Below, piece by piece: positions 20,158 to 54,721 of a stretch of DNA of 64,000 nt. Made by a program: the position numbers and the translations under genes. Numbering within the stretch: position 1 is the first letter of the stretch; every line of letters begins with the position of its first letter. This stretch comes from Escherichia coli. Its GTDB lineage: Bacteria; Pseudomonadota; Gammaproteobacteria; Enterobacterales; Enterobacteriaceae. Below the pieces are notes generated by a model. The model was not told where the DNA came from. It saw only the letters and a program-made list of their open reading frames with translations, and searched no databases. The stretch lies in the NCBI RefSeq assembly GCF_003018255.1, contig NZ_CP027440.1; one strand, written 5' to 3'.

Positions 20158-20222
20158 GTTTTTTGTTGCCTGAAATTTATGCTCTTTAAAATCATGATGT
20201 TAGAAGCACTGTTTTTTAACGA

Positions 20223-20244
20223 TGGCGACAAAATGGCGGCAGCG
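20223..20244. repeat. Prophage attachment-site core, left copy (tggcgacaaaatggcggcagcg)
   Basis: 21/22 identical to 54609..54630; lies immediately after the ogr stop, where P2-type attP sits. Confidence 0.7.
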
Positions 20245-20463
20245 TCAAAGAGAGAGCGCCACCTGTCCTGATTTCATTGGATGCGGCTGAACCGGATTTG
20301 ACTCTTTTGGCGTTGCAATCGAACGAACAAAAGTTTCATGAGTAACAAAAGTATGGCTGCAGTTAATGTTCTGGCACTGGTTGTAACGCTCTTTGGTCAA
20401 TGAAGATACCTGAAAACTGCTGCGAGTATGGGCGGCACTTCCACACAGTGGGCAAATCATCAT
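20245..20463 (-). CDS. ogr: Late-gene activator Ogr (zinc finger; CxxC...CxxxxC)
   Basis: ORF 20245..20496; start moved to MMICPLCGSAAH... for ~72 aa. Confidence 0.85.
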   Translation of the reverse strand: MMICPLCGSAAHTRSSFQVSSLTKERYNQCQNINCSHTFVTHETFVRSIATPKESNPVQPHPMKSGQVALSL

Positions 20464-20553
20464 TTTTCGAGTTCTCCCCATTTTTGCTAAATTCACAATA
20501 ATGATACCGCATTATTCCATTTTGAAAACTTAAAAGTTCTCCATTGCGAAGAA

Positions 20554-21654
20554 TCATTCCATTTCGAAATCATCAATCTTCACTTCAAGCTCCAGACTGG
20601 TCGTAAAACCGTTATCCGGGCTGACAGTATGCGTCAGGGTGGTAATAGTCCATTCCGCATCATCTATCGGCTGTTTAAAGCCACTGACTTTCACTGGCAT
20701 TTCCGTGTAGAGATCTGCCCGCCCTTCCGCCAGTTGTAGCGAGAATGACGCAACGCCGCGTTGCAGGCGTTCCCACTGCATTTTCGCCGCTCGTTCGGCG
20801 TTGCTCCGGTTGGCATAAGTGCGATTAAGTACCAGCACGTTTTCATCCGTACCCACCAGGTAATCGCCCTGCTTCGCTTCCGGCTCTTTCTTCTGCTTCT
20901 TAGTTCTGCGCTTACGCTTCACCGTGGTGCTTTCTTTCTTCGCGGGTTCGCGGGTATGCAACCAGCTGGCAATTACGCCCGTGTAAGCTCCGCGATCTGC
21001 CAGGGTAAAGCGGTGACTGTCGCCGTCCTTACGTGTGATAGTGATAACCGGTAGTGGTTTACCACTGGCGCTTTTACCCTGCCCCTGCCTGATGAATAAC
21101 AGATTGCCATTTTTCACCGACGCAATAGCACCGTACTGGCGCGCCAGCCGCATCAGAAAACTGCCGTCACTCTCATTGGTCTGGTCTATATGTTCCACGG
21201 GTTTATCTGACAGGTCTTTACCCAATGCCATCTTCAGTTTGTGCCGCGCAGCTATTTCCTTCACCACTTCCCCAACGGTGGTCTTGTGCCACGACTTTTC
21301 ACGGCGGGTATTCAGTGTTTCACGAAAATCAGCACTTCGCGCCCGGATAGTCAGGCGGTCCGGTGCGCCAGTGTGTTCAATCTCGTCCACTGTGAATGCC
21401 CCTTTCGGGAAAAGCGGCTGCCCCTTCCAGCCTAGCGCCAGCGTAATGACCGCACCACGGCGCGGCAGCGCTATTTTTCCATCGGCGTCATCCAGGTCCA
21501 GATCAAGCTGGTCCGCTTCAAAGCCCCGGTTATCCGTCAGCGTCAGACTCATCAGGCGGTTATCCAGCACAGTGGTGATATCCCTGCCCTCAATACTGAT
21601 ACTGAATGCCGGAGTTTTGTTGCCTTTGTTAAGCAGTTCAGAGCTGAAATTCAC
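20554..21654 (-). CDS. D: Tail protein D (P2 gpD-like)
   Basis: Size and position next to ogr and U. Confidence 0.85.
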   Translation of the reverse strand: MNFSSELLNKGNKTPAFSISIEGRDITTVLDNRLMSLTLTDNRGFEADQLDLDLDDADGKIALPRRGAVITLALGWKGQPLFPKGAFTVDEIEHTGAPDRLTIRARSADFRETLNTRREKSWHKTTVGEVVKEIAARHKLKMALGKDLSDKPVEHIDQTNESDGSFLMRLARQYGAIASVKNGNLLFIRQGQGKSASGKPLPVITITRKDGDSHRFTLADRGAYTGVIASWLHTREPAKKESTTVKRKRRTKKQKKEPEAKQGDYLVGTDENVLVLNRTYANRSNAERAAKMQWERLQRGVASFSLQLAEGRADLYTEMPVKVSGFKQPIDDAEWTITTLTHTVSPDNGFTTSLELEVKIDDFEME

Positions 21655-22136
21655 GACAGAAGCCCTCCCACCGTTTTACTGATATCGCTTAAGGCAGATG
21701 TTGCCGTTCCCTGCAGATTATTCAGCTGCGCACTGAGATCACCGAACATATCGGACAGGGATTCATCCACCCGTTTGAGCGACAGGGTGAACTCAATCCG
21801 GCGCGGCATACCGTTGCGGAAAAACTCCGTTTTAGTCTGATTCAGTCCCTCAATCACATACATGCCGTAAATCGTGCCGCTGCCTTCAATCAGAGGCCAT
21901 GCTTTCCCCTGTTCTGCCATCTGCTCAAGTGCCAGCAACGACAGCCTGCCGCCTGTTATCTCCGGCATAAGAACACCGGAAAGCGTCAGCATGTCGTTGT
22001 CTGGTCCCAGAAACTGCGTGGACGGACGACGATTTACCCGGCTGTTAACCGCATGTCGCCAGCTGCGTTGATACTGCAGTTCCTGATACGGCACGGTGCG
22101 CAGCATAAACACGTACAATCCCAGCACCATCATCAT
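21651..22136 (-). CDS. U: Tail protein U (P2 gpU-like)
   Basis: Size and P2 gene order. Confidence 0.8.
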   Translation of the reverse strand: MMMVLGLYVFMLRTVPYQELQYQRSWRHAVNSRVNRRPSTQFLGPDNDMLTLSGVLMPEITGGRLSLLALEQMAEQGKAWPLIEGSGTIYGMYVIEGLNQTKTEFFRNGMPRRIEFTLSLKRVDESLSDMFGDLSAQLNNLQGTATSALSDISKTVGGLLS

Positions 22137-25100
22137 GCGTCGTATCCCCCCTGATCGCTGTAGTTACTCCTGGCTTTTGCCTTCAGCCTGCGTTCACGTT
22201 CATCAAGCTGGCGTGCCACCTCCCGCGCAATATCCTGCGCACTTTGTCCTGGCTGCGTCTGAATGATGATCTGCGTCGGTGCCTCAATCCGTTGAACGAG
22301 CGGCACAGTGGCTGCGCGACTCACAATTGCTTCTCCACCTTTCGCGGGAAGTGCCAAAGGGTGCAACGGTGGAAGCTCTGCTGGCGCGGCAGCAACGCCC
22401 ATCATTCCGGCAACAACGGCAGCCAGTGCAGCTGTATTTCTCCGGCTGGTCACATTTGCCGGGCCGTTAACAATTTCCGGCCCGTTTTCACCGACGATGC
22501 CAAACTGCCCGCGCGGGATATACCCGCCGCTGTCATACATCCCCGCAAAGCCATATCCCCATGATGGAAAACCACCCGATGGCATCATCACTTTACCGTC
22601 TGCATTCACCGTCGCAGGTTGCTGACGCGTCACGCTTTCCGGCAGTTTTGCCTTTGCGGCCTCTTTACTGACAATGCCGAGCTTCTCCAGCAACCAGGAA
22701 ACGCCGGATTTCAGGGAGTCCAGCGGATGCATGACCATATTCAGCCCTTCCACCAGTGCCTCCCCGAATCGCCGCCCCATTGCCGCTGCGCTCTGCAGTT
22801 CGGCAGAGGTCGACTTAACGGGCGTCAGCAGATCAGTAAACCAGCCCCACAGCGCCTGCACTTTGTCGCCAATCCACTGGAACACGGGCTTAAGCGGTTC
22901 GAACGCTGCACTGATGGGACCTGCCGCCGCTTTGAATCCTTCCACCACGCCACCGAGAAATGCGGTGATGGGTTGCCAGTATTTCCAGACAACCAGCGCC
23001 ACGCCCGCCAGTGCAGTAACCACAAGACCTATCGGACTGAGCAGAGCACCTAACAGACCAGATATGGCATACAGGGCAACGCGCAGCATCGCCAGTGGAC
23101 CAGATGCCAGTACTCGCAGCACCGTGCCTGCGGCGGCCAGTCCACCGCGCAGTACCGACAGAGGATTCATAAACATCACAGCAACAGCACGTAAACCGGA
23201 TAATCCAGACCGCAAAAGTGCAACCGGCGCACCTGCTACAGTTTTCAGGACATTTCCCGTCAGTGATGCCGTGCGGCGCAAAGACGACAACGGCGCAGTA
23301 AGTAAACCTGCGGCGTTGCCCGATGAAGCAAGCCCGCGTCGCAGCAGTGCCAGTGGTGCGCCAGCCAGCCAGGACAACGCGCTGCTGGTTCGAGTTACTG
23401 CTGCCGTAACGAAAGATAACGTTTTGATACCCAGCACAGAGAATCCCAGACGGATCACTGCCAGCGGCCCCAGCACTGCAGCCAGCGCCACCGCTAAGGT
23501 GCCGAGGCCGACGGTAACCGCAGCCACAACAGCCGATGCTTTCATCAGTGTGCCTGTCAGTTCCGGGTTAGCTTCCACCCAGCGACGCAACGCCCCCGTG
23601 ACGCTTTTCACCGTGTACAGAATATCCATCAGCGGCTGGCGCAGCGTTTCGCCCAGGCTGCTGAAGGTGTTCTGCGCTCCGGTTTTGACCAGCAACCACT
23701 GCGCAGAAAGTGAATCCTTGTTAATGTCGGATTCTTTCTGCATGGAGCCGAGCGCATCATTGCCCGCTGTCAGTTTTAACTGACGCTGCAGTTCCGGCAG
23801 GTTGTTTGCCAGTTTCGCCGCGTCATCGCCAAACTCTTTACCAAACAACATAGTCATGGCAGACAGGCGCTTGTCCTGCGGCAGCGCGTTTACCTTCTCC
23901 AGCACGCGCTGGATGGTTCCCATCGCATCCTTCGTCATCTGCTTTTCAATCACTTCAGGATTGAGTTTCAGCAAATTCATCCCTTCAAAGAAACTTTTGC
24001 TTTGCATGGTGGCAATGGACAATTCACGCACCATCGCGTTTGCTGCACTGGCTGCAACCTCTGGCGCAGCGCCCAGTGTCAGGAAGGTGGAACCCAGCGC
24101 CGCCGCTTTACGATAATCCAGACGGTCAGCCACACCGCCCAGACGTTGCATCACATCAATGATGTCTGCCCCTTTCGACATGGCGTTATCATCCAGATAG
24201 TTCAGCGCATCACCGAGCTGTTCAATATTGCGGGTGGGGATTTTGTAGAGCTGGGCGATTTTCCCCAGACTTTCTGACAGTTCATCCGCTGGCAGCTCAA
24301 AGGCTGTTGCCGCCTTTGCTGCCGTACTGGCGAAGGCCAGCAGGTCACGTTTCTGATCTTCCCAACTGTCGTCAGGGTTTGCGACGTTCATGCGCGCACC
24401 ACCTTCAACCAGTGCAGCGAAATCCACCGCACCGTTTTCCATCGGCAACTGTTCGCTGGCAGCCTTGATGGCATCCTGCATTTCATAAAAACGTGCAGTG
24501 CGGTTGCCATTATCGTCACGCAGACCATTGACCTGCTTTGCCACACCTTTCATGGCATCTTCCATGCTGGTATAGCTTTTTACTGCCGCCATCACTGGTG
24601 CGCCCATTGCCAGCCCTGCAGCCGTGGTGGTGGCTCCGGCACCTGCAATACGATCACGCACCTCCAGCGAACGGGCATAACTGGCACGCGCTGCATTCAT
24701 CCTGCGCTGAGCTTCCCCCAGTCGCTTCAGCCGCGCCTCCTGTTTCGAAAGTTCCTGGTTATAACGTGATGTTTCACGGGCTAAACGGGCAGTTGCTCCC
24801 GCATCGTCTTTCGCAGAAATTCCCGCCCGGTACAGTTCAGCACGCACAAGCGCCGTCTGCTGCTGCAGCTTTTTCTGGCGTTCTTCCAGGCGCTGAACAG
24901 CCAGCCGTTGACGGCCCAGAGCAACAACCTGACGTTGCGAAGGCGGCCCCATCGCTCCCAGTTCCTGACTGAGCAAATTTGCACGCTGGCGGGCATAGTT
25001 CAGCCTGTCGCCTAATTTCTGATTTTCTGCCTGCAGCTTTCGGAAGCTGTCCAGACTGCTCCCGGCCTGATCAAGCTGCTTTATTGCATCGCGGGATTTT

Positions 25101-25210
25101 TTGACAGCAGCAGCCAGTTCTCTTGAACTGGCCTGCGCAGATCGAAATGGGCGGGTGAGCTTGTCAACCGCATTAAGAATGACCTGCAGACGCAGGTTGT
25201 TATCACTCAT
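22133..25210 (-). CDS. T: Tail tape-measure protein (P2 gpT-like, 1025 aa)
   Basis: Very long Ala/Leu-rich coiled-coil protein between E/E' and U. Confidence 0.88.
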   Translation of the reverse strand: MSDNNLRLQVILNAVDKLTRPFRSAQASSRELAAAVKKSRDAIKQLDQAGSSLDSFRKLQAENQKLGDRLNYARQRANLLSQELGAMGPPSQRQVVALGRQRLAVQRLEERQKKLQQQTALVRAELYRAGISAKDDAGATARLARETSRYNQELSKQEARLKRLGEAQRRMNAARASYARSLEVRDRIAGAGATTTAAGLAMGAPVMAAVKSYTSMEDAMKGVAKQVNGLRDDNGNRTARFYEMQDAIKAASEQLPMENGAVDFAALVEGGARMNVANPDDSWEDQKRDLLAFASTAAKAATAFELPADELSESLGKIAQLYKIPTRNIEQLGDALNYLDDNAMSKGADIIDVMQRLGGVADRLDYRKAAALGSTFLTLGAAPEVAASAANAMVRELSIATMQSKSFFEGMNLLKLNPEVIEKQMTKDAMGTIQRVLEKVNALPQDKRLSAMTMLFGKEFGDDAAKLANNLPELQRQLKLTAGNDALGSMQKESDINKDSLSAQWLLVKTGAQNTFSSLGETLRQPLMDILYTVKSVTGALRRWVEANPELTGTLMKASAVVAAVTVGLGTLAVALAAVLGPLAVIRLGFSVLGIKTLSFVTAAVTRTSSALSWLAGAPLALLRRGLASSGNAAGLLTAPLSSLRRTASLTGNVLKTVAGAPVALLRSGLSGLRAVAVMFMNPLSVLRGGLAAAGTVLRVLASGPLAMLRVALYAISGLLGALLSPIGLVVTALAGVALVVWKYWQPITAFLGGVVEGFKAAAGPISAAFEPLKPVFQWIGDKVQALWGWFTDLLTPVKSTSAELQSAAAMGRRFGEALVEGLNMVMHPLDSLKSGVSWLLEKLGIVSKEAAKAKLPESVTRQQPATVNADGKVMMPSGGFPSWGYGFAGMYDSGGYIPRGQFGIVGENGPEIVNGPANVTSRRNTAALAAVVAGMMGVAAAPAELPPLHPLALPAKGGEAIVSRAATVPLVQRIEAPTQIIIQTQPGQSAQDIAREVARQLDERERRLKAKARSNYSDQGGYDA

Positions 25211-25639
25211 CGTTGGCCCCGCTTCTCTGAATCGCTTTATACCGCCATTCCAGCACTTCGGTCAGCGGCATAACGTCAGTAACGGATGGCGGCCAGTGAA
25301 AAATGGTGGCGATATCTGCCACCAGATCGTCAACCGTCAGGCTGTCGGTAAACCGGCAAGCACCGACTTCTTCAACAAAAAAGTGACAACCTCAACCGAC
25401 ATGGCAGTGAGATCTGCCGGGTCCATCTCTGCAATTTCCTGTGCAGTCAGTGCCGGACTGGAGATGCGGGGGATCACGATCATCATCGCGTTTACATCCA
25501 TATCCATAATGGCCTGCAGGCGTGTACCGCGCAGCGCACCGGACTGCGGTTTACGCAGCACAATTTCGGTGATTTCTGTTTTACCGCGCTTGATGGGGGT
25601 ATCCAGTTGAATGGTCTTTTCAGTCTGCTTATCGCTCAT
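25207..25639 (-). CDS. E: Tail assembly chaperones E and E+E' (E = 25337..25639; E' by -1 frameshift at TTTTTTG)
   Basis: Minus-strand slippery heptamer at ~25375..25381; the -1 frame then stays open to a TGA overlapping the T start codon (ATGA). Confidence 0.7.
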
Positions 25640-25693
25640 TTTGCTGTCCTGTCAATTGGGTTCTGGCGCGGTATCCCGCGCCGTTCAGATATA

Positions 25694-26209
25694 TCAGAGG
25701 CCGAGGGCGTTGCGGTGCGCTTCCATCAGGTCCACACCGTCCACAATTTCCACCATGTTGATAAGGTCCACTTCATAGAGCACCTCACCATTGATGGTCA
25801 GCTTCGCGTAGCTGTTGGTACTGGTCACTTTGGTGGTGTTGCTTTCGCCCGTCTTCCACTCGCCGGAATCCACTTCTTTGTGACGTCCACGCACGACAAG
25901 CTCCACAGCCTGCACTTCCCCGGTATCGTCACGCTGAATAGAGCCGGTAAAGCGCAGCTGGATGCCATCCACCGTGGCTTTACCCATCTGTTTAAACAGC
26001 AGCAATTCAGTACCACCAATGGAAAATTCTGTGTCCAGCGCACTGTCATCAAGCCCCAGATCCACATCCACCGCACCCGGCATTCCGCCGCCGCGATACT
26101 TCTCATATTTGCGGGTGAATTTCGGCAGCGTCAGCGACTCAACGATCCCCTGCCAGTTGTTCCCGTCGTTAAACAGGTTCAGGTGTTTTAATTTGCGTGG
26201 TAAAGCCAT
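25694..26209 (-). CDS. FII: Tail tube protein (P2 gpFII-like, 171 aa)
   Basis: Size and order. Confidence 0.88.
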   Translation of the reverse strand: MALPRKLKHLNLFNDGNNWQGIVESLTLPKFTRKYEKYRGGGMPGAVDVDLGLDDSALDTEFSIGGTELLLFKQMGKATVDGIQLRFTGSIQRDDTGEVQAVELVVRGRHKEVDSGEWKTGESNTTKVTSTNSYAKLTINGEVLYEVDLINMVEIVDGVDLMEAHRNALGL

Positions 26210-26218
26210 GTTGTCCCC

Positions 26219-27391
26219 TTACGCGCTGACCTGGCTGGCGAAATTCACCAGGTACTGATCGGTGATGCGCTGACGCAGCATCAGGTTTTCAAGTGGCGGC
26301 ACTGGCGTGTAGTCGTAGTCGATGGTGAGTTTTCCGGCTTTCAGCGTGTCTTTGTCGTTCACCGACTCATCCAGCCAGCAATCACCACCAATGAGATAGC
26401 CCTGACTGACCAGGCTGCGCATTTTGGCGCGGATACCTTCGATAATGTCGCGGGCCAGCGACGGGTTAAGCGGTTTATCCACCGCCCACATGTGTGCTTC
26501 TGCCATCGTGTCCATCAGCACCTGCGCCGTGCGGGTGTAGTTTTCGAAGGCAAAGAGCGGGTCATCACTCAGGCAGCGGGAACCCCAGAAGCGGAAACCG
26601 TCTTTACGCACAAGCGTGGTGACGTCGTTCTGGTTCAGCAGACCTGCATCGGTTGCCGGGTCCTGCAGATCCCAGAACACATCTGCAGAAATTCCGGTGA
26701 CACCGTTCACGCCCACGTTGGACAGGCTTTTGTGCCATCCGGTCTGCTCGTCAATTTTGGCGCGCAGACCAAGCGCACGGGCGGTGGCATATGCCGTTGC
26801 TTCGGCATTCAGCACCGTGTCCCAGCCAGTAAAGTCAGGCCAGATCAGCATCCCTTCGCGCTGGCTGAAGTTTTCGCGGTAAGTGATCGCCTCCTGCACT
26901 GTCTTGCAGCCATACGCTGACAGGTAAGCAAATCCACGCAGGCTTTGCGCCACGCTCAGCAACTCAGTAGCTACCGCCTTGGTGTCGTGGCCTGGCACGC
27001 CGAGAATGCGCGGTTTAACGCCGAGCTGTGACTGGGCAGATAACAGGGCTTTCATACCTGTTTTTTTACCTTCAGCAGTCACTGCGCCGATGATATTGGT
27101 CGTGGTTTCGTCTTCCGTTTCACCCTGCGGCACACGCACAACAATGGTCACGGGTTTTGCCTGGTCAGCGATGGCATCCAGCGAACGGGCCAGAGTACCG
27201 GACTCACCCGCTTTACCGCTGGCAGTCAGCACATCAGTGATCAGCACGGGTTTATTAAGAGGAAACATTTTTGCATCGGCATCATCGCCCGTGCAGACCA
27301 TACCCACGATGGCGGTGCTCACCGTGGTAATAGATCGGGTGCCTTCGTTGACTTCAACAACGCGCACCCCGTGGTGGTAATCCTGAGCCAT
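26219..27391 (-). CDS. FI: Contractile tail sheath protein (P2 gpFI-like, 390 aa)
   Basis: Size and order. Confidence 0.9.
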
Positions 27392-27533
27392 AGTGGCGAA
27401 CCTCCTGATTGGATTAGGCTTCGCCCTATGTTGAAGTGATTGTGCCTGACAAACAGCTAAGCGCAGTTGTGTCGTTATTCACACAAAATAACGGTATTTG
27501 TCTGCTTGCAGGGATAATCAACATAATGCTGAT

Positions 27534-28106
27534 TCAGGGGGATTCATTGATCTTATTTGCCGGAAATTTTCTATAAATGGTAGAAACGCCTACATCAAAA
27601 ATCAGTGCAATACGCTGTCTTGATTCTCCGGCCTCGAGTAAACGCCCAATCTGTGCCCACTGTTCGGTGGTCAACTTAGGACGGCGTCCACCTACTCTGC
27701 CTTTGGCACGAGCTGCAGCCAGCCCTGCCCTGGTACGTTCAACTATCAGTTCGCGTTCCATTTCAGCCAGGGCACCCATGACATGAAAAAAGAAACGGCC
27801 CATTGGGGTACTGGTATCAATACTGTCAGTCAGGCTTCTGAAATTCACACCACGCTGGCGCAACTCTTCTATCAGCGTAACAAGATGCCGCATACTGCGC
27901 CCCAACCTGTCCAGCTTCCAGACAACCAGCGTGTCTCCTGCCGATAGTGTCCTGAGTAGTTTTTTCAGCCCCGGTCTGTCGGACTTAGTGCCACTGATTT
28001 TGTCCTCAAAAATCCGCTCACATCCCGCGCAGTTCAGTGCATTACGTTGCAAATCGGTGTTCTGGTCATTTGTTGACACGCGTACATAGCCAATAAGCAT
28101 GATCAT
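27534..28106 (-). CDS. Serine-recombinase DNA invertase (Hin/Gin/Pin family)
   Basis: N-terminal GYVRVSTNDQ catalytic-serine motif and C-terminal HTH; abuts the invertible tail-fibre segment. Confidence 0.9.
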   Translation of the reverse strand: MIMLIGYVRVSTNDQNTDLQRNALNCAGCERIFEDKISGTKSDRPGLKKLLRTLSAGDTLVVWKLDRLGRSMRHLVTLIEELRQRGVNFRSLTDSIDTSTPMGRFFFHVMGALAEMERELIVERTRAGLAAARAKGRVGGRRPKLTTEQWAQIGRLLEAGESRQRIALIFDVGVSTIYRKFPANKINESP

Positions 28107-28127
28107 CCCCCTGAATAAAAACCGGAG

Positions 28128-28664
28128 ATGATGCCAGTTAGCTGTTACCTCTGCATTTTCTTAAACGTTGGTTTGGGAGAAGGTTCAGCATTACCTGTTG
28201 GTGCGCCTGTTCCGTGGCCTTCAGAGACACCTCCAACAGGCTGGCTGAAATGCAACGGGGCGGCTTTTTCTGCTGAAGAATACCCGGAACTGGCAAAGGC
28301 TTACCCGACAAATAAATTGCCTGATTTACGAGGTGAATTTATTCGTGGCTGGGATGATGAACGTGGTGTGGATAGTGGGCGAACTCTGCTTTCAGCGCAA
28401 GGAGATGCTATTCGAAACATTACTGGCGGTTTTGGTCAGTTGCGCGTAAACAGCGAAATTAATGCAATTGTCGATGTTCAAAGTGTGAGTGGGGCTTTTT
28501 ACGGAGGTACCTCAGTCCGGAATAACATCAATGTGTCTATGACATACGCTAATGACCGAAAAATCCGACAAGATGTTCACTTCTCGGCGGCAAATGTTGT
28601 TCCAACAGCAAATGAAAATCGTCCACGTAACATCGCCTTTAATTATATTGTGAGGGCCGCATGA
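28128..28664 (+). CDS. Alternative tail-fibre C-terminal module (silent in this orientation; fused to H after inversion)
   Basis: No independent start is needed; its frame passes through the crossover site coding FLNVGLGEGS, matching LTYLGLGEAA in H. Confidence 0.65.
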   Translation: MMPVSCYLCIFLNVGLGEGSALPVGAPVPWPSETPPTGWLKCNGAAFSAEEYPELAKAYPTNKLPDLRGEFIRGWDDERGVDSGRTLLSAQGDAIRNITGGFGQLRVNSEINAIVDVQSVSGAFYGGTSVRNNINVSMTYANDRKIRQDVHFSAANVVPTANENRPRNIAFNYIVRAA

Positions 28665-29265
28665 TGAATAAAGCTGTATTAAATAGCAAACTCATTGCCA
28701 TAAAAGCGGGAGACATTATCATTTATAATTATGATGGTGAAACGCGGGAATATATTTCTACATCAACTGAATATCTCGCTGTCGGCGTCGGTATCCGGCA
28801 TGTTCTTGTTTGGATGCACCAGGTACACATAAAGCTGGTTATGCAATTTGTCGTTCTGTAGATTTAAACTCATGGGAATATGTGCCAGACCATCGCGGTG
28901 AAGTTGTCTATAACACCGAAACGGGAGAATCAAAAGAAATCACAGCTCCGGGTGATTACCCTGAAAATACAACCACTATCGCCCCATTAACGCCATACGA
29001 TAAATGGGATGGCGAGAAATGGGTGACGGATACCGAGGCACAGCATAGCGCCGCAGTAGATGCAGCGGAAGCACAGCGCCAGTCGCTGATTGATACTGCA
29101 ATGGCTTCCATCAGTCTGATTCAACTGAAATTGCATGCCGGACGTAAACTGACGCAGGCAGAAACAACCCGGCTTAACGCTGTGCTGGATTACATTGACA
29201 CGGTGACGGCAACAGATACCAGCACCGCGCCGGATGTCATCTGGCCTGAACTACCGGAGGCGTAG
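28661..29265 (+). pseudogene. Tail-fibre assembly (chaperone) gene paired with the alternative fibre module; split over two frames (28661..28861 and 28810..29265)
   Basis: C-terminal part ends ...VIWPELPEA like the G paralogue ...IEWPTPPVVQAR; the N-terminal 66 aa is in a different frame. Confidence 0.5.
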
Positions 29266-29680
29266 GCCATTCAATATCTGGAGCACTGGAGGTATCAACC
29301 AGTTCCAGTGCGTCCAGATAATCCAGCCATAAATTATATTGTTCCAGTTCGTCACCTTTCAGACGACCAATAGCAGCTTTGCCAGGCCACTGATGGGTGT
29401 TGATGTAGGTATTGGCTTCTGAAACCAAAGATATTTTTTTCATTTCAGCCATCAACACCTCATCCTCTTTTGAAGGCGGTGGGGAATTAATCCATATTGG
29501 CCGTCCTGAACTGTCAGCGCCAATTTCTTTCCCTTCTGGATGCAGCCCAAGAAATTGCTCATATCTTTCTCTGGTAATTTCAATAACATCATCAGGAAGC
29601 GTTCCCGCATCCTCATATTCTGGAAACAATTCTTGCAGATAAAAACTTTTACTTCCGGGTGAAAAGAATACTGAGTTCAT
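29237..29680 (-). CDS. G: Tail-fibre assembly protein (P2 gpG-like) for the currently expressed fibre
   Basis: 147 aa, directly after H. Confidence 0.85.
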   Translation of the reverse strand: MNSVFFSPGSKSFYLQELFPEYEDAGTLPDDVIEITRERYEQFLGLHPEGKEIGADSSGRPIWINSPPPSKEDEVLMAEMKKISLVSEANTYINTHQWPGKAAIGRLKGDELEQYNLWLDYLDALELVDTSSAPDIEWPTPPVVQAR

Positions 29681-29682
29681 TC

Positions 29683-31185
29683 TTACCGTCCAATGATTAA
29701 GGCTGAGACGCTGGTATCTGAAGGAAAGGCTGCATTCAGTGGTTTGTCGACTTTGAATACAATCGTATTATTCCCCCTGACAGCGGCAAAAGAACAAACC
29801 GCAGTCGCGTATGAACCTGTAATATTACTGGATACACCACCATAAGCTGTTGTTGATACCAGAGGGATAACGCCCAGCACCTTATTAGGAAATACAAAGG
29901 GCAATGTGGCTGTGGCAATATAAGACTTATTAGAACCTGTGATGGAATAAGCATTATCAGTCATTCCATTCATCGCCACTGGGCCGCTTATACTTACAGT
30001 AACCATCTGAATGATTAGCCCGTCAGGTTGACGAATCACAAAATTTCCATTGCCACCAGTAACCGTCCAGAAAGACATATCAGGGATTTGGTTTTCCCCG
30101 TTGCCCACATTCCGTTTTGCCGCTTCTCCCAAACCAAGGTATGTGAGAAGACCAGCTACATCCTTTCCACTCAAATTGGTAAGCGTATTGTCCAGCGGTT
30201 GTTTACCTGCCAGCGCATTAAGCATTGTCGTGGCAAAGTTCGGATCATTCCCCAGTGCCGCCGCCAGTTCGTTCAGTGTATCCAGTGCAGCAGGTGCAGA
30301 ACCCACCATTCCTGCAATCGCCGATTTCACAAAAGCCGTAGTGGCAATCTGTGTATTGTTGACCGACTGCGCCGCCGTGGGGGCTGTTGGCGTTCCGGTG
30401 AGTGCCGGACTCGACAACGGTGCTTTTAGTGCCAGCGCATTGTTAATGGTGGTACTGAAATTCGGATCATTGTTAATGGCTGCGGCTATTTCTTTCAGCG
30501 TGTCCAGCGTGGCTGGCGCACCATTAATAAGGGCCGTCAGTGCCGCCTGTACAAACGCAGTGGTCGCAACCTGCGTGGTATTATTCCCCGCCGCTGGCGT
30601 TGGCGCTTTGGGGGTTCCGGTAAATGTCGGGCTGGCTTTTGGCGCGTACTGTGAATGCGGGTCCGGTGCGGCAAGATGTTTTGCCATCTGATCATCCGCG
30701 TACACCTTCAGCTCCAGTGCCTTGTCATCCACATACTTGCGGGTTGCCAGCACTACAGCAGGGTCGATTTTCAGGGTGATATTGTCCGTGCTGCTGGTAA
30801 TCAGCACCATGCGCACGGTCTGAGTGCGCCCGCTACCTTCAGCCAGTTGCGGCTTATAGCTTTCCGGGCAGTTGCCCACGGCAATCAATGCCCCGGACTC
30901 ATCAAACAAGCCCACTTCACGTATCCACCAACCGCCCTCGTTTTCAGGGATCACCTGTTCGGCAATAATCTGGCTGCTGTTCTGCGGGTCGATATAAAGC
31001 ATATTCAGCGCAGCCCGGCGTTTCTCATTTACCAGTGCCGTCTGCTTTGCGTCCGGCGTTGGCAATACTCCACCGCCATCGCCCACCGCCATATGGGTAA
31101 TTTTTAGCGGCACACCGAGCGCGGCGGCGCTGGCAAGTTTCGCCGCGCCAATATCCGTCAGCAGGGTATAAAATTTTGTGCTCAT
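29683..31185 (-). CDS. H: Tail fibre protein (P2 gpH-like, 500 aa); N-terminal ~349 aa constant, C-terminal part inside the invertible segment
   Basis: Conserved N-terminus MSTKFYTLLTDIGAAKLA...; internal ~73-aa tandem repeat; crossover site within the ORF. Confidence 0.9.
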   Translation of the reverse strand: MSTKFYTLLTDIGAAKLASAAALGVPLKITHMAVGDGGGVLPTPDAKQTALVNEKRRAALNMLYIDPQNSSQIIAEQVIPENEGGWWIREVGLFDESGALIAVGNCPESYKPQLAEGSGRTQTVRMVLITSSTDNITLKIDPAVVLATRKYVDDKALELKVYADDQMAKHLAAPDPHSQYAPKASPTFTGTPKAPTPAAGNNTTQVATTAFVQAALTALINGAPATLDTLKEIAAAINNDPNFSTTINNALALKAPLSSPALTGTPTAPTAAQSVNNTQIATTAFVKSAIAGMVGSAPAALDTLNELAAALGNDPNFATTMLNALAGKQPLDNTLTNLSGKDVAGLLTYLGLGEAAKRNVGNGENQIPDMSFWTVTGGNGNFVIRQPDGLIIQMVTVSISGPVAMNGMTDNAYSITGSNKSYIATATLPFVFPNKVLGVIPLVSTTAYGGVSSNITGSYATAVCSFAAVRGNNTIVFKVDKPLNAAFPSDTSVSALIIGR

Positions 31186-31787
31186 GGATTCACTCTCATT
31201 GTGTCAATAACATGGACCGCCCCGCCTTCATGCGCGGTGCCACCGGAAATAATCGTTTCGTTGATATACGGATAGATCGTGATTTCTTCGCCAAGATAGC
31301 TGGCGGCTCCCACCCAATGCGGGCCGCTGGTCTGCAGATTGATGGACATGCCGATCATGTGGCGGCTACATGGTTTGGCATCGCTTATCAGTCGCTCAAG
31401 TTCCAGATAGGTATCTTCAGTGATGCCCTGGTCCTGCACGCCGATATCCAGGCGAAACGTGCCCGGTGTTTCTCCGGTCTGCCACCACTCAATAATGCGG
31501 ATCAGGAATCCGAACGGTTCCACCGCCCGCCGCACGGCACTGGTGGTTCCTTTATGCTGATGAATATAAAAAGCATCCTTCACTACCTGGCGTTTGACGC
31601 TTTCTGTCCAGCCCTCGTCCCAGCGATCCACAGAGAACGCCCAGGCGAGATAAGGCAGGAAGCTGACCGGACAGGTAGCCGGATTCCACAAGTCACGCAG
31701 CGGCACCTGCAAATCAGAAATCCCGCTACAGGTTTGCGCCAGTCGGCGCTCCAGTGAAGTTGAACCCGGTGGCAGCAGACTATTCAT
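31182..31787 (-). CDS. I: Baseplate/tail protein I
   Basis: P2 order and size. Confidence 0.8.
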   Translation of the reverse strand: MNSLLPPGSTSLERRLAQTCSGISDLQVPLRDLWNPATCPVSFLPYLAWAFSVDRWDEGWTESVKRQVVKDAFYIHQHKGTTSAVRRAVEPFGFLIRIIEWWQTGETPGTFRLDIGVQDQGITEDTYLELERLISDAKPCSRHMIGMSINLQTSGPHWVGAASYLGEEITIYPYINETIISGGTAHEGGAVHVIDTMRVNP

Positions 31788-32688: not shown

Positions 32689-33034
32689 TCTCTGCTCCTG
32701 TTGATACGGAAAGGGACACAGGCACACCGTTATTCCGCCGCCCGGTCAGCTCCACCACCATTGAACCGTCAAAATTGCTGTTGATGGTGATGGAATCCAG
32801 CGTCAACCGTGGCTCCCAGCGACTCAGCGCCACATACACTGCAGACATGACCTGCAGGCGTAATGCCGGATTTTGTGGCTGATCTATCAGTGCCGACAGC
32901 AGGGAACCATATTCCCGGCGGGCAATACGGCTACCCTGCGGTGTCAGCAGAATGTCCCGCACCGACTGGCGCAGATGATCAATATCAGTAATGACTTTGC
33001 CGCTGGTATTGTTCATCCCGCTATAAAGCGTCAT
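32675..33034 (-). CDS. W: Baseplate protein W (GPW/gp25 family)
   Basis: Size and order. Confidence 0.85.
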   Translation of the reverse strand: MTLYSGMNNTSGKVITDIDHLRQSVRDILLTPQGSRIARREYGSLLSALIDQPQNPALRLQVMSAVYVALSRWEPRLTLDSITINSNFDGSMVVELTGRRNNGVPVSLSVSTGAENGSD

Positions 33035-33609: not shown

Positions 33610-33677
33610 AGGGAAAGGTTGCCATCAGGGGAAGAAAGGCGGCAGTGCTGCAACTTGTATCAGTGCTGATACAAAGA

Positions 33678-34569: not shown

Positions 34570-34801
34570 TAATCATGTCCACTTTGTCTGCACAGACCGC
34601 CCAGGCGGCCTCCGTTTCATCCAGCAACGCGTTCAGGCCACCGTTAGTGCGCGGCGCTGCCTGATCCAGCCGACACGGCGTCACTCGCGGACAACCACTG
34701 ACGGTAAGCTGCACCTCCGGTGAGTGTGGGGCGTTCCCGCAGCCGGATAATGTCAGCAGGCAAAGGAGTATCAGCCCAGCGGCGTAAATCCTCGTTCTCA
34801 C
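34511..34801 (-). CDS. lysC: Outer-membrane spanin lipoprotein (Rz1/LysC-like), embedded out of frame in lysB
   Basis: Lipobox LTLSGC after a signal peptide; Pro-rich; overlaps the 3' part of lysB as in P2. Confidence 0.55.
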   Translation of the reverse strand: MRTRIYAAGLILLCLLTLSGCGNAPHSPEVQLTVSGCPRVTPCRLDQAAPRTNGGLNALLDETEAAWAVCADKVDMIIACQERNSEQTTIPAPRPQ

Positions 34802-35446: not shown

Positions 35447-35447
35447 T

Positions 35448-36156: not shown

Positions 36157-36159
36157 AAT

Positions 36160-38635: not shown

Positions 38636-38651
38636 CGGGTTTTGTGCTCCA

Positions 38652-42460: not shown

Positions 42461-44428
<1,968 letters not shown>

Positions 44429-45268: not shown

Positions 45269-47710
45269 TTAATACAGGTTCCGCCACTGATCATCTTCCT
45301 GCAAACGCTGGTTCCGATAGAAGATACGCAGGCCTGCTCCTGACGGAATACTGCCTCCGCGAAGGAGTAAATCGACCTCTTTCTCGCTGCCATCAAATCC
45401 TCTGGACTTCAGCTCATACACGAGCTGCAGTCGCTGATGGTCTGTAATTCGCTGTTTGTAGTCTTTACGCCGTTTCGGTTTCACCAGGCGTAACCTTGCA
45501 GCCAGTTCCCGGCGCTCTTTTTTGCTCATACTGTGCAGGTAATCGTGCAACTCCTTGTCATCCATGCGGGTAATGTCCGTTCTGGTATCCCCATCAGCTG
45601 ATTTGTCTTTCCCTTGTTGGTTCAAATTTTCAGCAAGGGGACAGTTATTGCCACGAGTCCAAGGGGCGCAAGCGCCCTGGTCGGCTGCCGCCTCCTGAAC
45701 GTCAACGGCCTTACGAACCATTTTCCACTTCACTGCATGAGTGCAGATCTTGCCCTCTGCAATGGGTGACCAGATGCCATAAATACGAATACCGTGATCA
45801 CCATAGGCGGTCGGCTCTTCGTTGATTTCATAAGCGGTTCTGATCAAGTGATATTTGCGGGGAACCAGTACGCCGCCCTGCTTCATAATGTAGGTGGCAA
45901 AACAGCCAGCATCAGCAGCAGCCAGAATGGCATCAAGGCGCGGGTTATCCAGTACCGACGCACCTGCTTTTTTGTCACCCTGTTGCCTTGCCGCCTGACC
46001 AGCCAGCAATCGCAGTTCACGGTAAGCCTGACGCCCCGGAATGCCAAAGAAGCGGAATTGCTGAACACGATGCAGAGACGCCCAGGCATTAACGTATTCA
46101 GCATTATCACGCAGGGATTTACCCGTTTCCTTGCTGATCTCGCCAGCCAGACCACGCCCGTCAATGTTCTTACTGATGTATTTCGCGATGTAGCTTGTTG
46201 GCGTACCTTTGCGCGGGTTTATCAGCTCAGACTTAAAGCGTGGCCCCGTGTTATTACCCAGCTCCTCGCGGTCTTCACGAATGGCAAACTTACGCAGCAA
46301 AGCAGTAATGGCGCGGCGATCTTTTTTGCGCATGAAACACAACAGGTGCCAGTGAACTGTGCCGTCATGATGCGGCTCAGCCACCCGCACGCCATACCAG
46401 CGCAACCCGGTTTTGTGCATAGCCTTACGAAATGCAGCAAACATGCCGACCAGATAATCGCTGCTTTGTCTTACCGTCGCGTTTGTCCAGGTCGGGTTTG
46501 GTCTGCCGTTATTGAGCGTGGAATGGAAACGCGACGGACAGGTGATGGTGTAGAAAACGGCACAGTCACTGCGCATTTCCGCGATAAGCTCCAGACCTTT
46601 AACACAGGCCATCATCTCATTGCGGCGATGCGCCGGGTTGCTGCTGCTGGCCTTTACCACATCTTCCATATCCAGCGTGTCGCCGTTTTCGTTCACCAGT
46701 TCATGAGAACGGAAAAACTCCAGCGACTTACGGCGCTGCTCACGTTTATGCATCACGGCTTCATAGCTGACATAGGGAGATGCTTTTTTGCTGACCAGGC
46801 AGACAGCACGCAACTGCTCTTCCCGCCATTCGCAGCGCATCTTCCATAATTTCCGATACCACCAGTCGGCACACAACATACGCGCCAGCGAACCCGGAAT
46901 GAGTTCATAGGGCACGGGTTTGCGACGCTTTCTTTTCCGACGAAGTTGCTCAAACGCAGGCGGGATAACATCCAGTCGCAGGGTTTCCGCTGCCACCTTT
47001 TCCCATGTCTTGCGGATTTCTTCTGGCTTAACATCATCGGTGGCGTACAAATCACCACAAGCGGCATCAAGGCACATGCTCATATGCGCAGCTACCAGGG
47101 TGGACAGGCGTTTCACCTGATCCTGACTCATTTCAGGCAGGATCAGCAGGCCGTCCAGCCCTTCATGGCTCGCCATAAAGCGAAAAGAAGTGGATAGCTG
47201 ACTGTCGCGTACATGCTCCAGCCGTTCCAGACATGGCTTAATCGTCTCACGCAAATAGCGAGAATAAGCCTTTGGCCTGCCCAGGCTGCTGAAGTATTCA
47301 ATACGTTGCATCAGCGGCTTGCTGATATGGGAAGGCTGGGCGTTAACGTCCGCCAGAATGACCATGTCCGGATTAAAACGCTGCTGCTCATGCGCCAGCT
47401 TTGCCCGGCTAATGAGCTTATCCTGCTCCATTTCGCGTTGGACAGGATCACGGGATTCATTAAAGAAATAACGCTCCCAGACCTGATCACTCAGTGCCTC
47501 GCGGCGCAGTTGTTCCTGCTCGTTATCGGCAGCGTACAGAGTGATCAGGTTTGAAAGCGCAGAAACCGGCGCAACTTCCGCCGGGTCCAGATAAGGGTTA
47601 ATGGCTTTCTTAGGTAAATTCCACGAATAACCCCCGGCAGAATTCTCAATGCTACCGGAAGTTACACTGACAAATGGATCGGCAAGACGGCCTGTGCTGA
47701 TCTCTGTCAC
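45269..47710 (-). CDS. A: Replication initiation protein (P2 gpA / 186 RepA family rolling-circle initiator, 813 aa)
   Basis: Size, position and paired catalytic tyrosines (...YIAKYISKN...). Confidence 0.88.
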
Positions 47711-51722: not shown

Positions 51723-51926
51723 TTAAGCAGACAAAGCATCAACAGTCAGAGCAGCCAGGTTAATCATTACCTTTTCACGTTTTTTGTCTTTACGAAGACG
51801 ATGACGAGGTAGTCGGCCATCAGCCAACATGTCGTTAATCGTATCAATAGAAAGGCCAGTCAGTTCGCTATAACGTTCGATTGTGACATGTGGTGTATTC
51901 AGAGTAATTGAAATGTTAGGTGTCAT
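51723..51926 (-). CDS. apl: Apl/Cox-like excisionase and transcriptional regulator (67 aa)
   Basis: Small HTH protein, first gene of the lytic operon, divergent from cI. Confidence 0.65.
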
Positions 51927-52071
51927 AAGGCAACATTCCTTCTAGATATGGCTTGTGGCGAGCCGTTGTTTGTCGTGATTAGTAGTGAAGGCTCCAAAAG
52001 AACACTTCTGGTTCAACTTTAAGATCTCTTTTGGAATCTGTCAACGAATTTTGGATTTCTTTGGAGGACTT
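51927..52071. promoter_or_regulatory. Lysis-lysogeny switch region between apl and cI (pR/pL and operators expected here)
   Basis: Position only, by analogy with 186; no operator sites were resolved. Confidence 0.4.
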
Positions 52072-52641
52072 GTGGATTTCAATAGCGGCGGTAAGAAAGC
52101 CATAGAACGTTTAGTTGAAGCATATGGGTTCGGTACCCGTCAGGCTCTCTGTGATCATTTAGGTGTTTCTAAGAGCACCATGGCAACGCGCTATATGCGT
52201 GATATTTTTCCAGCAGATTGGGTAATCCAGTGCGCCCTTGAAACGGGCACCTCGCTTAATTGGCTAACAACAGGGCATGGTTCAAAGCAAGCATCAGCAA
52301 ATACAAATACTATGGAAGTTGCTAAATATGTATTATCTGATGGGGCCTTGTGTGAAGACGGTTTTTATATTTTCGATAGGGAATTTCTACCGTCGGCATT
52401 CAAGAATATTTTTGCAATCACAGATAATAATTCTGAATTTGTTTGTGATAAGGAATTTGATGATATACGTGATGGTAAATGGGTAATAAGTATTGATGGC
52501 GAAATAACGATCCGTGACATTACTCGTTTACCCGGTGGAAGAATCTTCGTCGAGGGTGGAAACAGAGCCTTCGAATGCAAGATAGAAGACATTGAAATAA
52601 TTGGTAAAATTATAAGTTTAACAGTCAAGTATGTTAAATAG
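52072..52641 (+). CDS. cI: CI-type immunity repressor (186 CI-like, ~189 aa)
   Basis: ORF 51985..52641; start reassigned to a GTG preceded by GGAGGA; HTH region [29 protein letters not shown]. Confidence 0.75.
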
Positions 52642-53037: not shown

Positions 53038-54081
53038 ATGGCAGTACGAAAACTAACCACAGGGAAATGGCTTTGCGAATGTTACCCCGCCGGACGCAGC
53101 GGGCGTCGCGTGCGTAAACAGTTCGCTACCAAAGGCGAAGCATTAGCTTTTGAGCGTCACACGATGGAGGAGGCAGAAGCTAAGCCTTGGCTTGGTGAAT
53201 CGGTAGACCGTCGAACTCTACAGGATATCGTTGAACTCTGGTTCAAACTGCACGGCAAATCCCTGACCGCTGGCGAGCATGTTTACGACAAGTTGATACT
53301 GATGGTCGATGCTCTCGGAAATCCCCTCGCCACCGATCTAACATCCAAAATGTTCGCGCACTATCGCGATAAGCGCCTGACGGGTGAAATCTACTTCAGC
53401 GAAAAATGGAAGAAAGGAGCCAGCCCGGTAACTATCAATCTGGAGCAAAGCTATCTGAGTGGGGTCTTTAGCGAGTTAGCCCGACTCGGTGAATGGACAG
53501 CACCAAATCCACTGGAGAACATGCGTAAATTCACCATTGCCGAAAAAGAAATGGCCTGGCTGACACATGAACAAATCACAGAGCTTCTGTTCGACTGTCA
53601 ACGCCAAAGCCCCCTGCTCGCTCTTGTCGTCAAAATCTGCTTGAGCACCGGAGCACGTTGGCGCGAAGCTGTGAACCTGACACGTTCTCAGGTCACGAAA
53701 TACCGAATCACATTTGTCAGAACTAAGGGCAAAAAAAACCGCAGCATTCCGATCAGCAAAGAGCTGTATGAGGAAATTGTTGCCCTAGACGGCTTCAAAT
53801 TATTTACTGACTGCTACTTCCAGTTTTTAGCCGTGATGGATAGAACCTCGATCGTACTACCACGCGGGCAACTTACCCACGTTCTACGCCATACGTTCGC
53901 AGCACATTTTATGATGTCCGGCGGGAACATTCTTGCTTTGCAAAAAATCCTGGGCCACCACGATATAAAAATGACTATGCGCTATGCACATCTTGCCCCT
54001 GATCACCTTGAAACAGCACTGCGTTTCAATCCATTAGCCACACTTTCCACTAAAGCAACGAACCTTGAAGCAAACAGCTAA
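53038..54081 (+). CDS. int: Tyrosine integrase (P2/186 family)
   Basis: ORF 52882..54081 trimmed to MAVRKLTTGKWLCECYPAG...; C-terminal catalytic region HVLRHTFAAHF...MRYAHL. Confidence 0.9.
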   Translation: MAVRKLTTGKWLCECYPAGRSGRRVRKQFATKGEALAFERHTMEEAEAKPWLGESVDRRTLQDIVELWFKLHGKSLTAGEHVYDKLILMVDALGNPLATDLTSKMFAHYRDKRLTGEIYFSEKWKKGASPVTINLEQSYLSGVFSELARLGEWTAPNPLENMRKFTIAEKEMAWLTHEQITELLFDCQRQSPLLALVVKICLSTGARWREAVNLTRSQVTKYRITFVRTKGKKNRSIPISKELYEEIVALDGFKLFTDCYFQFLAVMDRTSIVLPRGQLTHVLRHTFAAHFMMSGGNILALQKILGHHDIKMTMRYAHLAPDHLETALRFNPLATLSTKATNLEANS

Positions 54082-54121
54082 CACGTTAAAATAGCGCACC
54101 TTCCCTTAATAGAGTAAAGCT

Positions 54122-54607
54122 ATGTCCGGCATTGCGGATTTTTTTTCAGTTGTGGCTGCAGTTGGGGCAGTTGTAATCATCCCTGCTGCATATCAACCTA
54201 TTTATCAATCATCTAAAACAAAAAACTATGAGTCTTTGGTAAAAGTTGATTGGGGCAATGAAGGTGACATCTCTACTTCTTATCCACATTTCATACATAT
54301 ACAGTTAGAGAAAGCAGAAGGTGATTGGACTTTTTCAGGAGAACTCATCTGCACAATTAATCCCGAAGAAAAGTTCGTCATTCAGGGTAAACTGAGATGT
54401 CTTAGGACTATAGATGCTGTAATACATCGTACTATTGGCTGGCGGGCTATTGAGATTGGAAAGGCTAAAATCAAGTATGACCGCCGCACAAATCAGTGTC
54501 GATTTATCCCACAAAAGGTTGCTCAGAAGAAACTTGAGACTGATTGCGAACGTGCAATCTTCAGCACCAGCCTCCCTTTATGGGGAAATGACAAATCTCC
54601 GGTATAA
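54122..54607 (+). CDS. Hypothetical protein (161 aa) with an N-terminal hydrophobic segment, cargo between int and attR
   Basis: ORF ends 1 nt before the att core; no recognisable motif. Confidence 0.5.
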   Translation: MSGIADFFSVVAAVGAVVIIPAAYQPIYQSSKTKNYESLVKVDWGNEGDISTSYPHFIHIQLEKAEGDWTFSGELICTINPEEKFVIQGKLRCLRTIDAVIHRTIGWRAIEIGKAKIKYDRRTNQCRFIPQKVAQKKLETDCERAIFSTSLPLWGNDKSPV

Positions 54608-54608
54608 G

Positions 54609-54630
54609 TGGCGACAAAGTGGCGGCAGCG
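54609..54630. repeat. Prophage attachment-site core, right copy (tggcgacaaagtggcggcagcg)
   Basis: Direct repeat of 20223..20244 with one mismatch. Confidence 0.7.
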
Positions 54631-54721
54631 GTTGGCATTGTCCCGTAATCGCCACTCCTTATCACTAACCTAACTTATTGATTGTCTTGCAACTCATTGT
54701 TATTTCTAACCCATTTACATA

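Follow-up and report, generated by a model that had tools for sequence, protein, structure and literature searches.

The 64,000-nt stretch of Escherichia coli DNA analysed here (the window) carries the porin gene yedS in two pieces with a prophage between them, and it raises the question of how the phage entered. Direct repeats of 22 bp lie close to both prophage ends but inside the points where the porin sequence breaks off and resumes, and at those points a sequence of just 6 bp, AAATGG, is shared. Which of the two marks the crossover, and what is the DNA that separates them? A first-pass annotation of the window had taken the 22-bp repeats for att cores, and had proposed either that these were embedded in a short older insertion within yedS or that the outer ends belonged to a different entry mechanism.

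The locus is the yedS position in E. coli, flanked by drpB and hchA. The 5′ fragment (20072..20157, plus strand), which is the start of the split ORF, encodes the signal peptide and AEIYNKNG and past the junction reads into phage DNA as GFFVA, followed by a stop; this porin 5′ end was matched in 4,880 E. coli genomes. The 3′ fragment (54727..55699, plus strand) encodes NKVELYGK and onward through the stop codon, and joining 20157 to 54727 gave an unbroken 352-aa porin ORF, in agreement with the earlier reading that a complete prophage splits a gene that is otherwise intact. The alignment to an uninterrupted allele that had been recommended defined a seamless empty site: yedS of E. coli DETEC-S792 matched the rejoined flanks at 800/800 positions and contains one AAATGG. 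The two copies in the window (20152..20157 and 54721..54726) thus mark the true break points, as had been supposed, and the insertion spans 20158-54726 (34,569 bp). The earlier sequence statements about the break points held, with the right end now refined. Likewise, the segments between repeats and break points (hereafter the fillers) resemble neither porin nor each other, as described; the left one (20158-20222) is 65 bp long as given, and the right one (54631-54720) is 90 bp rather than 91 bp. It was also observed that yedS is often already defective, and that yedS of DETEC-S792 carries IS1.

By PHROG assignment the prophage carries P2-type genes for structure and replication, arranged in P2 order; the set is the full P2-type one plus apl, cI and int. 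From the left end, an ogr/Delta-type zinc-finger late-gene activator (20245..20463, minus strand; PHROG 603), annotated as ogr in related records, is the last gene before att. It is followed by the P2-type late region (20554..42419; D, U, tape measure, sheath, tail fibre, DNA invertase, capsid, terminase and portal, assigned by PHROG), which shared 96-97% nucleotide identity with Peduoviridae records. No long inverted repeats (seed 10) were found flanking the presumed invertible tail-fibre segment. Next to the portal gene lies cargo, a retron-type reverse transcriptase-Toprim fusion of type I-C (42461..44401, minus strand; PADLOC RT-Toprim_I-C, E=9e-217); Rfam gave no family inside the prophage and no msr RNA match near the retron reverse transcriptase. 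A replication endonuclease of the P2 gpA type (45269..47710, minus strand; PHROG 91), an Apl/Cox-like excisionase and repressor (51723..51926, minus strand; PHROG 575, E=1e-29), a CI-type immunity repressor (51985..52641, plus strand; PHROG 4), whose true start may be later and whose position is taken by an annotated CI in related prophages, and a 347-aa tyrosine integrase (53038..54081, plus strand; PHROG 1) complete the module. The ogr gene lies next to attP, opposite int, and ogr, attP and int are contiguous in phage KP12.

Over residues 1-338 the integrase shared 93% identity with those of KP12 and OkiPb01675; with phage 186 Int the figure was 55% over 339 aligned residues, the N-terminal arm-binding domain included. 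In the latter alignment the N-terminus and the surroundings of the active site were conserved, including HxLRHT and MRYAH. Its last ~9 residues are replaced where a cargo ORF of 161 aa begins (54122..54607, plus strand), and because of this replaced C-terminal tail its activity is not guaranteed; prophages with the same shortened Int were found at fhuE and hchA. The cargo ORF sits between int and the arm sites described below and had no PHROG, PADLOC or Pfam match. In its slot other prophages have different ORFs, and 186 has Orf69.

Taken together, we consider it highly probable, from this gene content and from the attachment-site comparisons below, that a P2-like phage with a 186-type lysogeny module (Peduoviridae) entered yedS at a secondary site by means of its own heterobivalent tyrosine integrase. 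The 22-bp repeats read TGGCGACAAA[A/G]TGGCGGCAGCG, with copies at 20223-20244 and 54609-54630 that differ by the one mismatch already reported. Even with three mismatches allowed, the window contained no match besides these two, and the expectation from 100 shuffles was 0. A pair so long, near-perfect, direct, unique in the window and close to both prophage ends is what would be looked for in true att cores, and the phage would then have entered an older insertion of ~156 bp in yedS. Three observations make this hardly credible. The empty site of DETEC-S792 contained neither filler nor 22-bp repeat, and among 5,426 complete E. coli genomes none had a filler adjoining yedS without the prophage. 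Phage KP12, and likewise a tandem-prophage junction in E. coli CFSAN061772, has the two fillers and the two repeats in one continuous stretch about a single core, an arrangement impossible for a crossover core, which is single in attP. Finally, the host junction falls at ATG(G), ~65 bp beyond the repeat, in the lysogens at ompF, fhuE and hchA described below as in the 1,105 at rybB. An empty allele with both fillers and one repeat, as had been predicted for ordinary att-site integration, was thus not found; the integration is nonetheless of the usual att-site type, its core being placed at the break points.

In the preferred reading, entry by the phage's own integrase, the fillers are the inner parts of the attP arms, because they are contiguous with the repeats around one core in KP12 and CFSAN061772; a different entry mechanism for the outer ends is therefore unneeded. 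The attP reconstructed from the window gave a gap-free alignment over the junction both with KP12 and with the int-attP-ogr boundary between the tandem prophages of CFSAN061772. It measures ~210-260 bp, lies between int (plus the cargo ORF) and ogr, and its core reads ...CCCATTTACATAAATGG|GTTTTTTGTTGCC..., with one arm on either side at arm-to-core distances of ~63-87 and 96-120 bp. The inner part of the ogr-side arm occupies 20158..20219; the ATGG just before it and its own first 23 nt make up a 27-nt block identical to the empty rybB attB. The int-side core region lies at 54711..54726; in attP, CCCATTTA-CA-TAAATGGG forms an inverted repeat that is followed by T6.

Each 22-bp repeat consists of two 11-bp units in tandem, in the register 20220-20241 and 54606-54627. 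We predict arm-type Int sites at both places, with the units CGATGGCGACA and AAATGGCGGCA on the ogr side (20220..20241, plus strand, the 186 consensus being on the complementary strand) and AAGTGGCGACA and AAGTGGCGGCA on the int side (54606..54627, plus strand). Against the curated 186 consensus YAYCGCCAYTY, three units matched at 10/11 positions and the fourth at 8/11; the arm-type site consensus has also been given as tgccGCCActt (PMC3448106). Each arm has a tandem pair at 11-bp spacing, and the orientation relative to int and ogr/B is as in 186. A possible third unit lies inverted at 54647..54657 (minus strand; AATCGCCACTC on the plus strand), a motif match with one mismatch to the 186 consensus. 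A lone 11-bp unit is unspecific (41 matches with up to two mismatches vs 24 expected), and only tandem pairs are distinctive. The int-side units were unchanged in all 7 related loci read, except for one base in an IMG/VR sequence (AAATGG for AAGTGG), and they stay essentially constant while the DNA just upstream of them varies between prophages. Based on this conservation and the homology with the phage 186 sites, the 22-bp repeats are predicted integrase arm-binding sites, not crossover sites. Candidates for accessory factors of the arms are the apl homologue and an exact IHF consensus, AATCAATAAGTTA (54671..54683, minus strand), a motif placed between arm sites and core; the exact consensus occurred 5 times in 64 kb vs 2.6 expected, which makes it weak evidence, and the motif was not exact in KP12.

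We propose that integration would cut attP in its core and leave one arm with each prophage end, the fillers being arm DNA from core to arm sites and the 22-bp repeats the arm sites themselves. Strands would be exchanged within the short AAATGG identity, with the crossover inside ATGG. AAATGG (6 nt) is the sole uninterrupted identity between attP and the yedS attB, joined by GTTG 7 nt further on, and because the identity is just 6 nt the exact cleavage positions are unreadable from sequence. The 7-bp overlap probably starts at or beside ATGG, and 3-4 nt of homology may be enough for the first strand swap. Int, Apl and IHF together could remove the element and regenerate yedS precisely; excision at the core would leave a circular junction ...CATAAATGGGTTTTTTG... 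and a yedS reading ...AATAAAAATGGCAATAAA....

The same 6 bp at both ends of the insertion would also be produced by transposition, or another entry independent of Int, if AAATGG were a target-site duplication. This reading appears extremely improbable, given that both prophage ends correspond exactly to a P2-like phage attP in permuted form and that no transposase was found among the 20 larger ORFs run against PHROGs and PADLOC, all of which were P2-type or cargo. Moreover, AAATGG is not a duplicated target: in the sister insertions (the yedS lysogens OkiPb01675 and IMG/VR, and the ompF lysogen) GATGG on the left comes from the host and AATGG on the right from the phage.

Comparison with empty sites pointed to rybB as the usual target, the empty rybB site being identical to attP over 27 nt. 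The ogr-side arm was present in 1,118 of the 5,426 complete E. coli genomes, as 1,128 copies in all, with a rybB|arm junction in 1,105 of the genomes and a yedS|arm junction in 1. Judged by these junctions, the sRNA gene rybB supplies the normal attB at its 3′ end (terminator), and yedS is a rare secondary site. In the rybB lysogens RybB stays intact, with an Rfam score of 105 bits for the sequence that spans the junction. In the source genome, rybB lies beyond the window. A topic search for rybB as an integration site of P2-like phages returned nothing; rybB is among the listed P2-like prophage insertion sites (PMC3032704).

About 20 arm copies in E. coli lay outside rybB, and the secondary sites named here are among the matches listed. 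The same ogr-side arm was joined at ...ATG(G)| to rybB, yedS, ompF, fhuE and hchA. Two further yedS lysogens have the insertion at the homologous codon (OkiPb01675 and one IMG/VR isolate contig), a related prophage lies at the homologous codon of ompF in one ST131 blood isolate, strain 4224, and further related prophages lie inside fhuE and inside hchA. The IMG/VR lysogen was the one contig matched by both the junction pattern AAYAAARATGGGTTTTTTGTTG and its right-hand counterpart; searched in one genome per species, AAYAAARATGGGTTTTTTGTTG gave two unrelated MAG matches and no more porin|arm junctions. Thin identity of 6 nt between yedS and attP is also what illegitimate, Int-independent recombination at a microhomology would leave, had it fallen by chance in the attP core. 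We regard this as very unlikely: random events of that kind would be spread over the 34-kb phage genome, whereas the seven non-rybB insertions in four genes (yedS three times, ompF, fhuE and hchA) always break attP at ATG(G), where the curated 186 record puts the crossover. This ATG(G) is the int-proximal end of the 27-nt block of rybB identity.

A tentative suggestion, for which the odds are somewhat below even, is that the DNA of the porin mature N-terminus (…EIYNK[D/N]GNK…, TAYAAYAAARATGGCAAYAAAGT) is a preferred secondary attB of rybB-type P2-like phages, which occasionally knock out porins. Knock-outs of this kind are yedS in three genomes and ompF in the ST131 isolate from blood; if the suggestion holds, antibiotics, or phages and colicins that depend on a porin, could enrich such lysogens. 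The remaining sites are fhuE, which encodes an outer-membrane receptor, and hchA, which adjoins yedS; they hint that selection plays a part in addition to sequence preference. It is plausible that loss of the yedS porin to the prophage is functionally important. A topic search for ompF interrupted by a P2-like prophage returned nothing, and the literature retrieved for yedS and prophage held none on this subject, judged by titles.

Prophage integration of this kind is known biology; the recurrent porin target is mildly new. Att-like repeats inside the break points are the normal site anatomy of a heterobivalent integrase, and arm-type sites are easily taken for att cores. In prophage boundary calling, the longest direct repeat would shift both ends by 65-90 bp and would hide the exact restorability of the host gene. 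The case also means that a very common attP, carried by about one-fifth of the complete E. coli genomes and usually located at rybB, sometimes enters outer-membrane protein genes, and the ompF insertion in a clinical ST131 strain represents one more path to porin loss.

Among known systems, phage 186 (NC_001317) has the same order of ogr/B, arm sites, core, arm sites, optional small ORF and int, the same tandem 11-bp arm-type pairs with a GCCAC core on both arms, an extra inverted unit, though on its other arm, and a crossover at the int-side limit of the block common to attP and attB. IHF and Apl are its accessory factors, a likeness that here is suggested by motif and homology. It differs in arm-to-core distance (~100-125 bp vs ~63-87 and 96-120 bp here) and in target, which for the present phage is the rybB 3′ end (27 nt) and, in the window, a secondary site in a protein-coding gene; attB equals the attP core over 27 nt at rybB and over 6 nt at yedS. 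The Rybb*B/W/Cr prophages of E. coli B, W and Crooks (PMC3032704) share the integrase family, the ogr-side arm and the core, with 100% identity over 154 nt to the remnant in E. coli B, BL21 and C. They occupy the primary site and leave RybB intact, whereas the window prophage destroys yedS. The PhiECO1 integration-site group (PMC3448106) is probably the same rybB site, judging by its map position, which is ~0.91 Mb in both HS and CFT073 of E. coli. Klebsiella phage KP12 (OM835953) matched over 83% of the first 25 kb at 97% identity; the attP organisation is identical in KP12 and 4LV2017 (KY271398, Peduoviridae, Elveevirus), and the annotated 19-bp attR of the latter, ATGGGTTTTTTGTTGCCTG, overlaps the junction of the window prophage. 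Both phages are without the 161-aa cargo ORF, their int runs through the arm sites, and their records name another host genus.

Secondary sites of P2 (locH, locII and others), reportedly described by Barreiro and Haggard-Ljungquist in 1992, are said to combine partial core identity with a crossover fixed in attP, and those of lambda, reportedly treated by Weisberg and Landy in 1983, are likewise said to be rare sites used by the same integrase, with partial core identity and a fixed attP crossover. By comparison, the secondary sites found here lie inside genes (yedS, ompF, fhuE and hchA), and two of them are homologous codons of paralogous porins.

The prophage had been placed within the porin gene yedS, and the reading frame bore this out. 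The 5' part of yedS starts at 20072, encodes the signal peptide and AEIYNKNG, and ends at 20157, and the frame picks up past 54726 with NKVELYGK and runs to a stop codon at 55699. Fusing 20157 to 54727 gave an intact porin ORF of 352 aa. The break at AAATGG, copies of which are present at 20152-20157 and 54721-54726, was also confirmed. Given the neighboring genes (dcm, yedJ, and drpB on one side, hchA and hprS on the other) and the Rfam match to RseX directly upstream of yedS (19673-19762, plus strand), the locus is the E. coli yedS position. Rfam also matched DsrA farther upstream (11251-11337, minus strand) and a tRNA close to the right end of the window (63158-63244, minus strand). Both RseX and RybB have been described to act on mRNAs for outer-membrane proteins; no mechanistic tie between RseX beside yedS and the att site was seen.

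The query for the empty site consisted of the two flanks after rejoining, 400 + 400 nt with a single AAATGG. They matched E. coli DETEC-S792 at 800/800 positions, and a match spanning the empty yedS site was found in 2,737 of 5,426 complete E. coli genomes, a set from which the window's own genome was absent at 100% identity. Neither the 22-bp repeat nor the filler, i.e., the DNA between each break point and the repeat (20158-20222 and 54631-54720), was present at the empty yedS site. The first-pass annotation had raised the option of an att core embedded in an older insertion within yedS; such an older insertion was excluded, since searches with each junction gave no genome in which filler abutted yedS without the prophage. 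In DETEC-S792 itself (NZ_CP116067.1, locus L003 4315-6151), the att site is empty and perfect and yedS is broken farther downstream by IS1; the yedS porin gene is thus lost via several routes.

Only two copies of the 22-bp repeat, TGGCGACAAA[A/G]TGGCGGCAGCG, are present, at 20223-20244 and 54609-54630, and each is made of two tandem 11-bp units; no third copy was found at up to 3 mismatches, and none in 100 shuffles. When attP was rebuilt by fusing the two prophage ends, right to left, the resulting DNA was found uninterrupted across the join in the Klebsiella phage KP12, in the order int 3' end, 22-bp repeat, filler, CCCGTTTACATAAATGGGTTTTTTG, filler, 22-bp repeat, ogr. The same uninterrupted attP lies between two tandem P2-like prophages in E. 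coli CFSAN061772 (NZ_CP042893.1, locus L012 876-2312; int, attP, ogr), and the three-way alignment of the rebuilt attP, KP12, and this junction was gap-free. Both repeats sit in one attP in KP12 and in CFSAN061772, and therefore neither is the crossover core; the earlier reading of them as att cores was wrong. Judged from these alignments, the fillers are the inner portions of the two attP arms, and such an inset-repeat layout is textbook for heterobivalent integrases.

That rybB is the primary site of this prophage type is already known, and the E. coli W genome paper lists it as a P2-like insertion site (PMC3032704). In the Klebsiella phage 4LV2017, as in E. coli B, BL21, and C, the rybB 3' end meets the ogr-side arm at ...GAT/GGGTTTTTTG, and Rfam reports RybB at 105 bits across the rybB/arm junction. 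The empty rybB site and attP have 27 nt in common, ATGGGTTTTTTGTTGCCTGAAATTTAT. Among the 5,426 genomes, the arm was present in 1,118 (1,128 places), the rybB/arm junction in 1,105, and the yedS/arm junction in a single one (OkiPb01675).

Related prophages were also found off site in yedS (an IMG/VR isolate contig), in ompF (the ST131 blood isolate 4224, at the codons whose homologs are interrupted in yedS), inside fhuE, which encodes a siderophore receptor (DSM 103246, NZ_CP019944.1, loci L007/L013), and inside hchA, the neighbor of yedS (ESDR8, NZ_CM169472.1, loci L010/L014). In strain 4224, an E. coli O25b:H4-ST131, the major porin gene ompF is split at …IYNKDG/GNKVDLYGK… by a P2-like relative of the window prophage that has the same attP (NZ_CP103592.1; L008 2514-2603, L011 6779-7783). 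In every off-site insertion, including the crossovers in fhuE and hchA, the switch from host to phage fell within ATG(G). On the side nearest int, the 27-nt rybB identity block ends with ATGG, and the equivalent end of 186's own block is where the phage 186 record predicts the crossover. A target-site duplication was rejected because the two copies differ in the OkiPb01675, IMG/VR, and ompF lysogens, the left being host GATGG and the right phage AATGG. The right-junction query, covering the int-side arm and the first stretch of the 3' porin fragment, matched at only 77.6% between the window and OkiPb01675 yedS; given this low allele match, the different int cargo, and ompF being a different gene, the porin-gene insertions look at least partly independent. 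The number of matching places per genome suggests that OkiPb01675 and ESDR8, and probably DSM 103246, have no second arm copy, and off-site integration therefore probably needs no occupied rybB.

The window prophage, which is P2-like and has a full late gene set plus apl, cI, and int, lies in yedS and is bounded by the two halves of a known attP type. Int, bound at both the core and the arm units and aided by IHF-induced DNA bending, would have recombined attP with the yedS sequence AATAAAAATGGCAATAAAGTTG; a candidate IHF consensus motif lies at 54671-54683. The yedS AATAAAAATGGCAATAAAGTTG and attP have AAATGG in common, followed by GTTG 7 nt on. The overlap probably starts at ATGG, in which case the first strand swap would be backed by 3 to 4 nt of homology. 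Int and Apl could excise the prophage, restoring yedS exactly.

Several cargo genes and a DNA invertase gene were identified. A retron-type RT fused to Toprim (42461-44401, minus strand; PADLOC RT-Toprim_I-C, E=9e-217) adjoins the portal gene, at the position that is the usual hotspot for cargo in P2. The 300 nt upstream (44402-44700) showed a strong fold (z=-2.7) and no match to an Rfam msr family. The early region carries a 336-aa PAPS-reductase/SspD/DndC-like protein (47707-48717, minus strand) and a 306-aa Dam-like orphan methyltransferase (48714-49634, minus strand). A Hin/Cin-type DNA invertase (27534-28106, minus strand; PHROG 125, E=1e-101) adjoins opposite-strand ORFs in the tail-fiber operon (28128-29265, plus strand), which suggests that this segment is invertible; no long inverted repeats were found around it at seed 10. 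In the ompF prophage of strain 4224, the gene for a KAP family P-loop NTPase, situated between int and the cI/ydcA-like genes (L011 4239-5570), marks another variable cargo position.

The last Int residues are replaced by a 161-aa ORF (54122-54607, plus strand) that separates int from the arm sites. Its N terminus is hydrophobic, and it had no match in PHROG, PADLOC, or Pfam. Up to residue 338, the Int of the window (53038-54081) shares 93% identity with its counterparts in KP12 and OkiPb01675; in those two, int extends through the arm units, whereas in the window the inserted ORF reaches precisely to the first unit. Since unrelated ORFs fill the same slot elsewhere (240 aa in DSM 103246, 89 aa in ESDR8, another in the IMG/VR contig, and Orf69 in 186), it looks like a cargo slot. 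The differing ORFs in other prophages all end at the same boundary, and the near-unchanged units beside such freely swapped DNA argue that the arm units are under constraint.

In the searched literature, integration into a porin gene by this attP type was not found. In the curated record of phage 186, arm-type sites (consensus YAYCGCCAYTY) are marked on both sides of attP; IHF footprints and Apl sites are given too, along with a small ORF that separates attP from int; the published 186-type arm-site consensus is tgccGCCActt (PMC3448106). Scanning 186 revealed tandem unit pairs with 11-bp spacing in both arms, and the window has the same pairs, spacing, and orientation relative to int and ogr/B, with 3 of its 4 units having one mismatch to the 186 consensus. 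By homology with 186 and by their conservation, the 22-bp repeats are thus predicted arm-type integrase sites. Over its full length, the window Int shares 55% identity with that of 186. The prophage belongs to the P2/186 group, its Int and attP being of the 186 type, and its porin-gene targets are a minor extension of known secondary-site behavior that involves no new mechanism.
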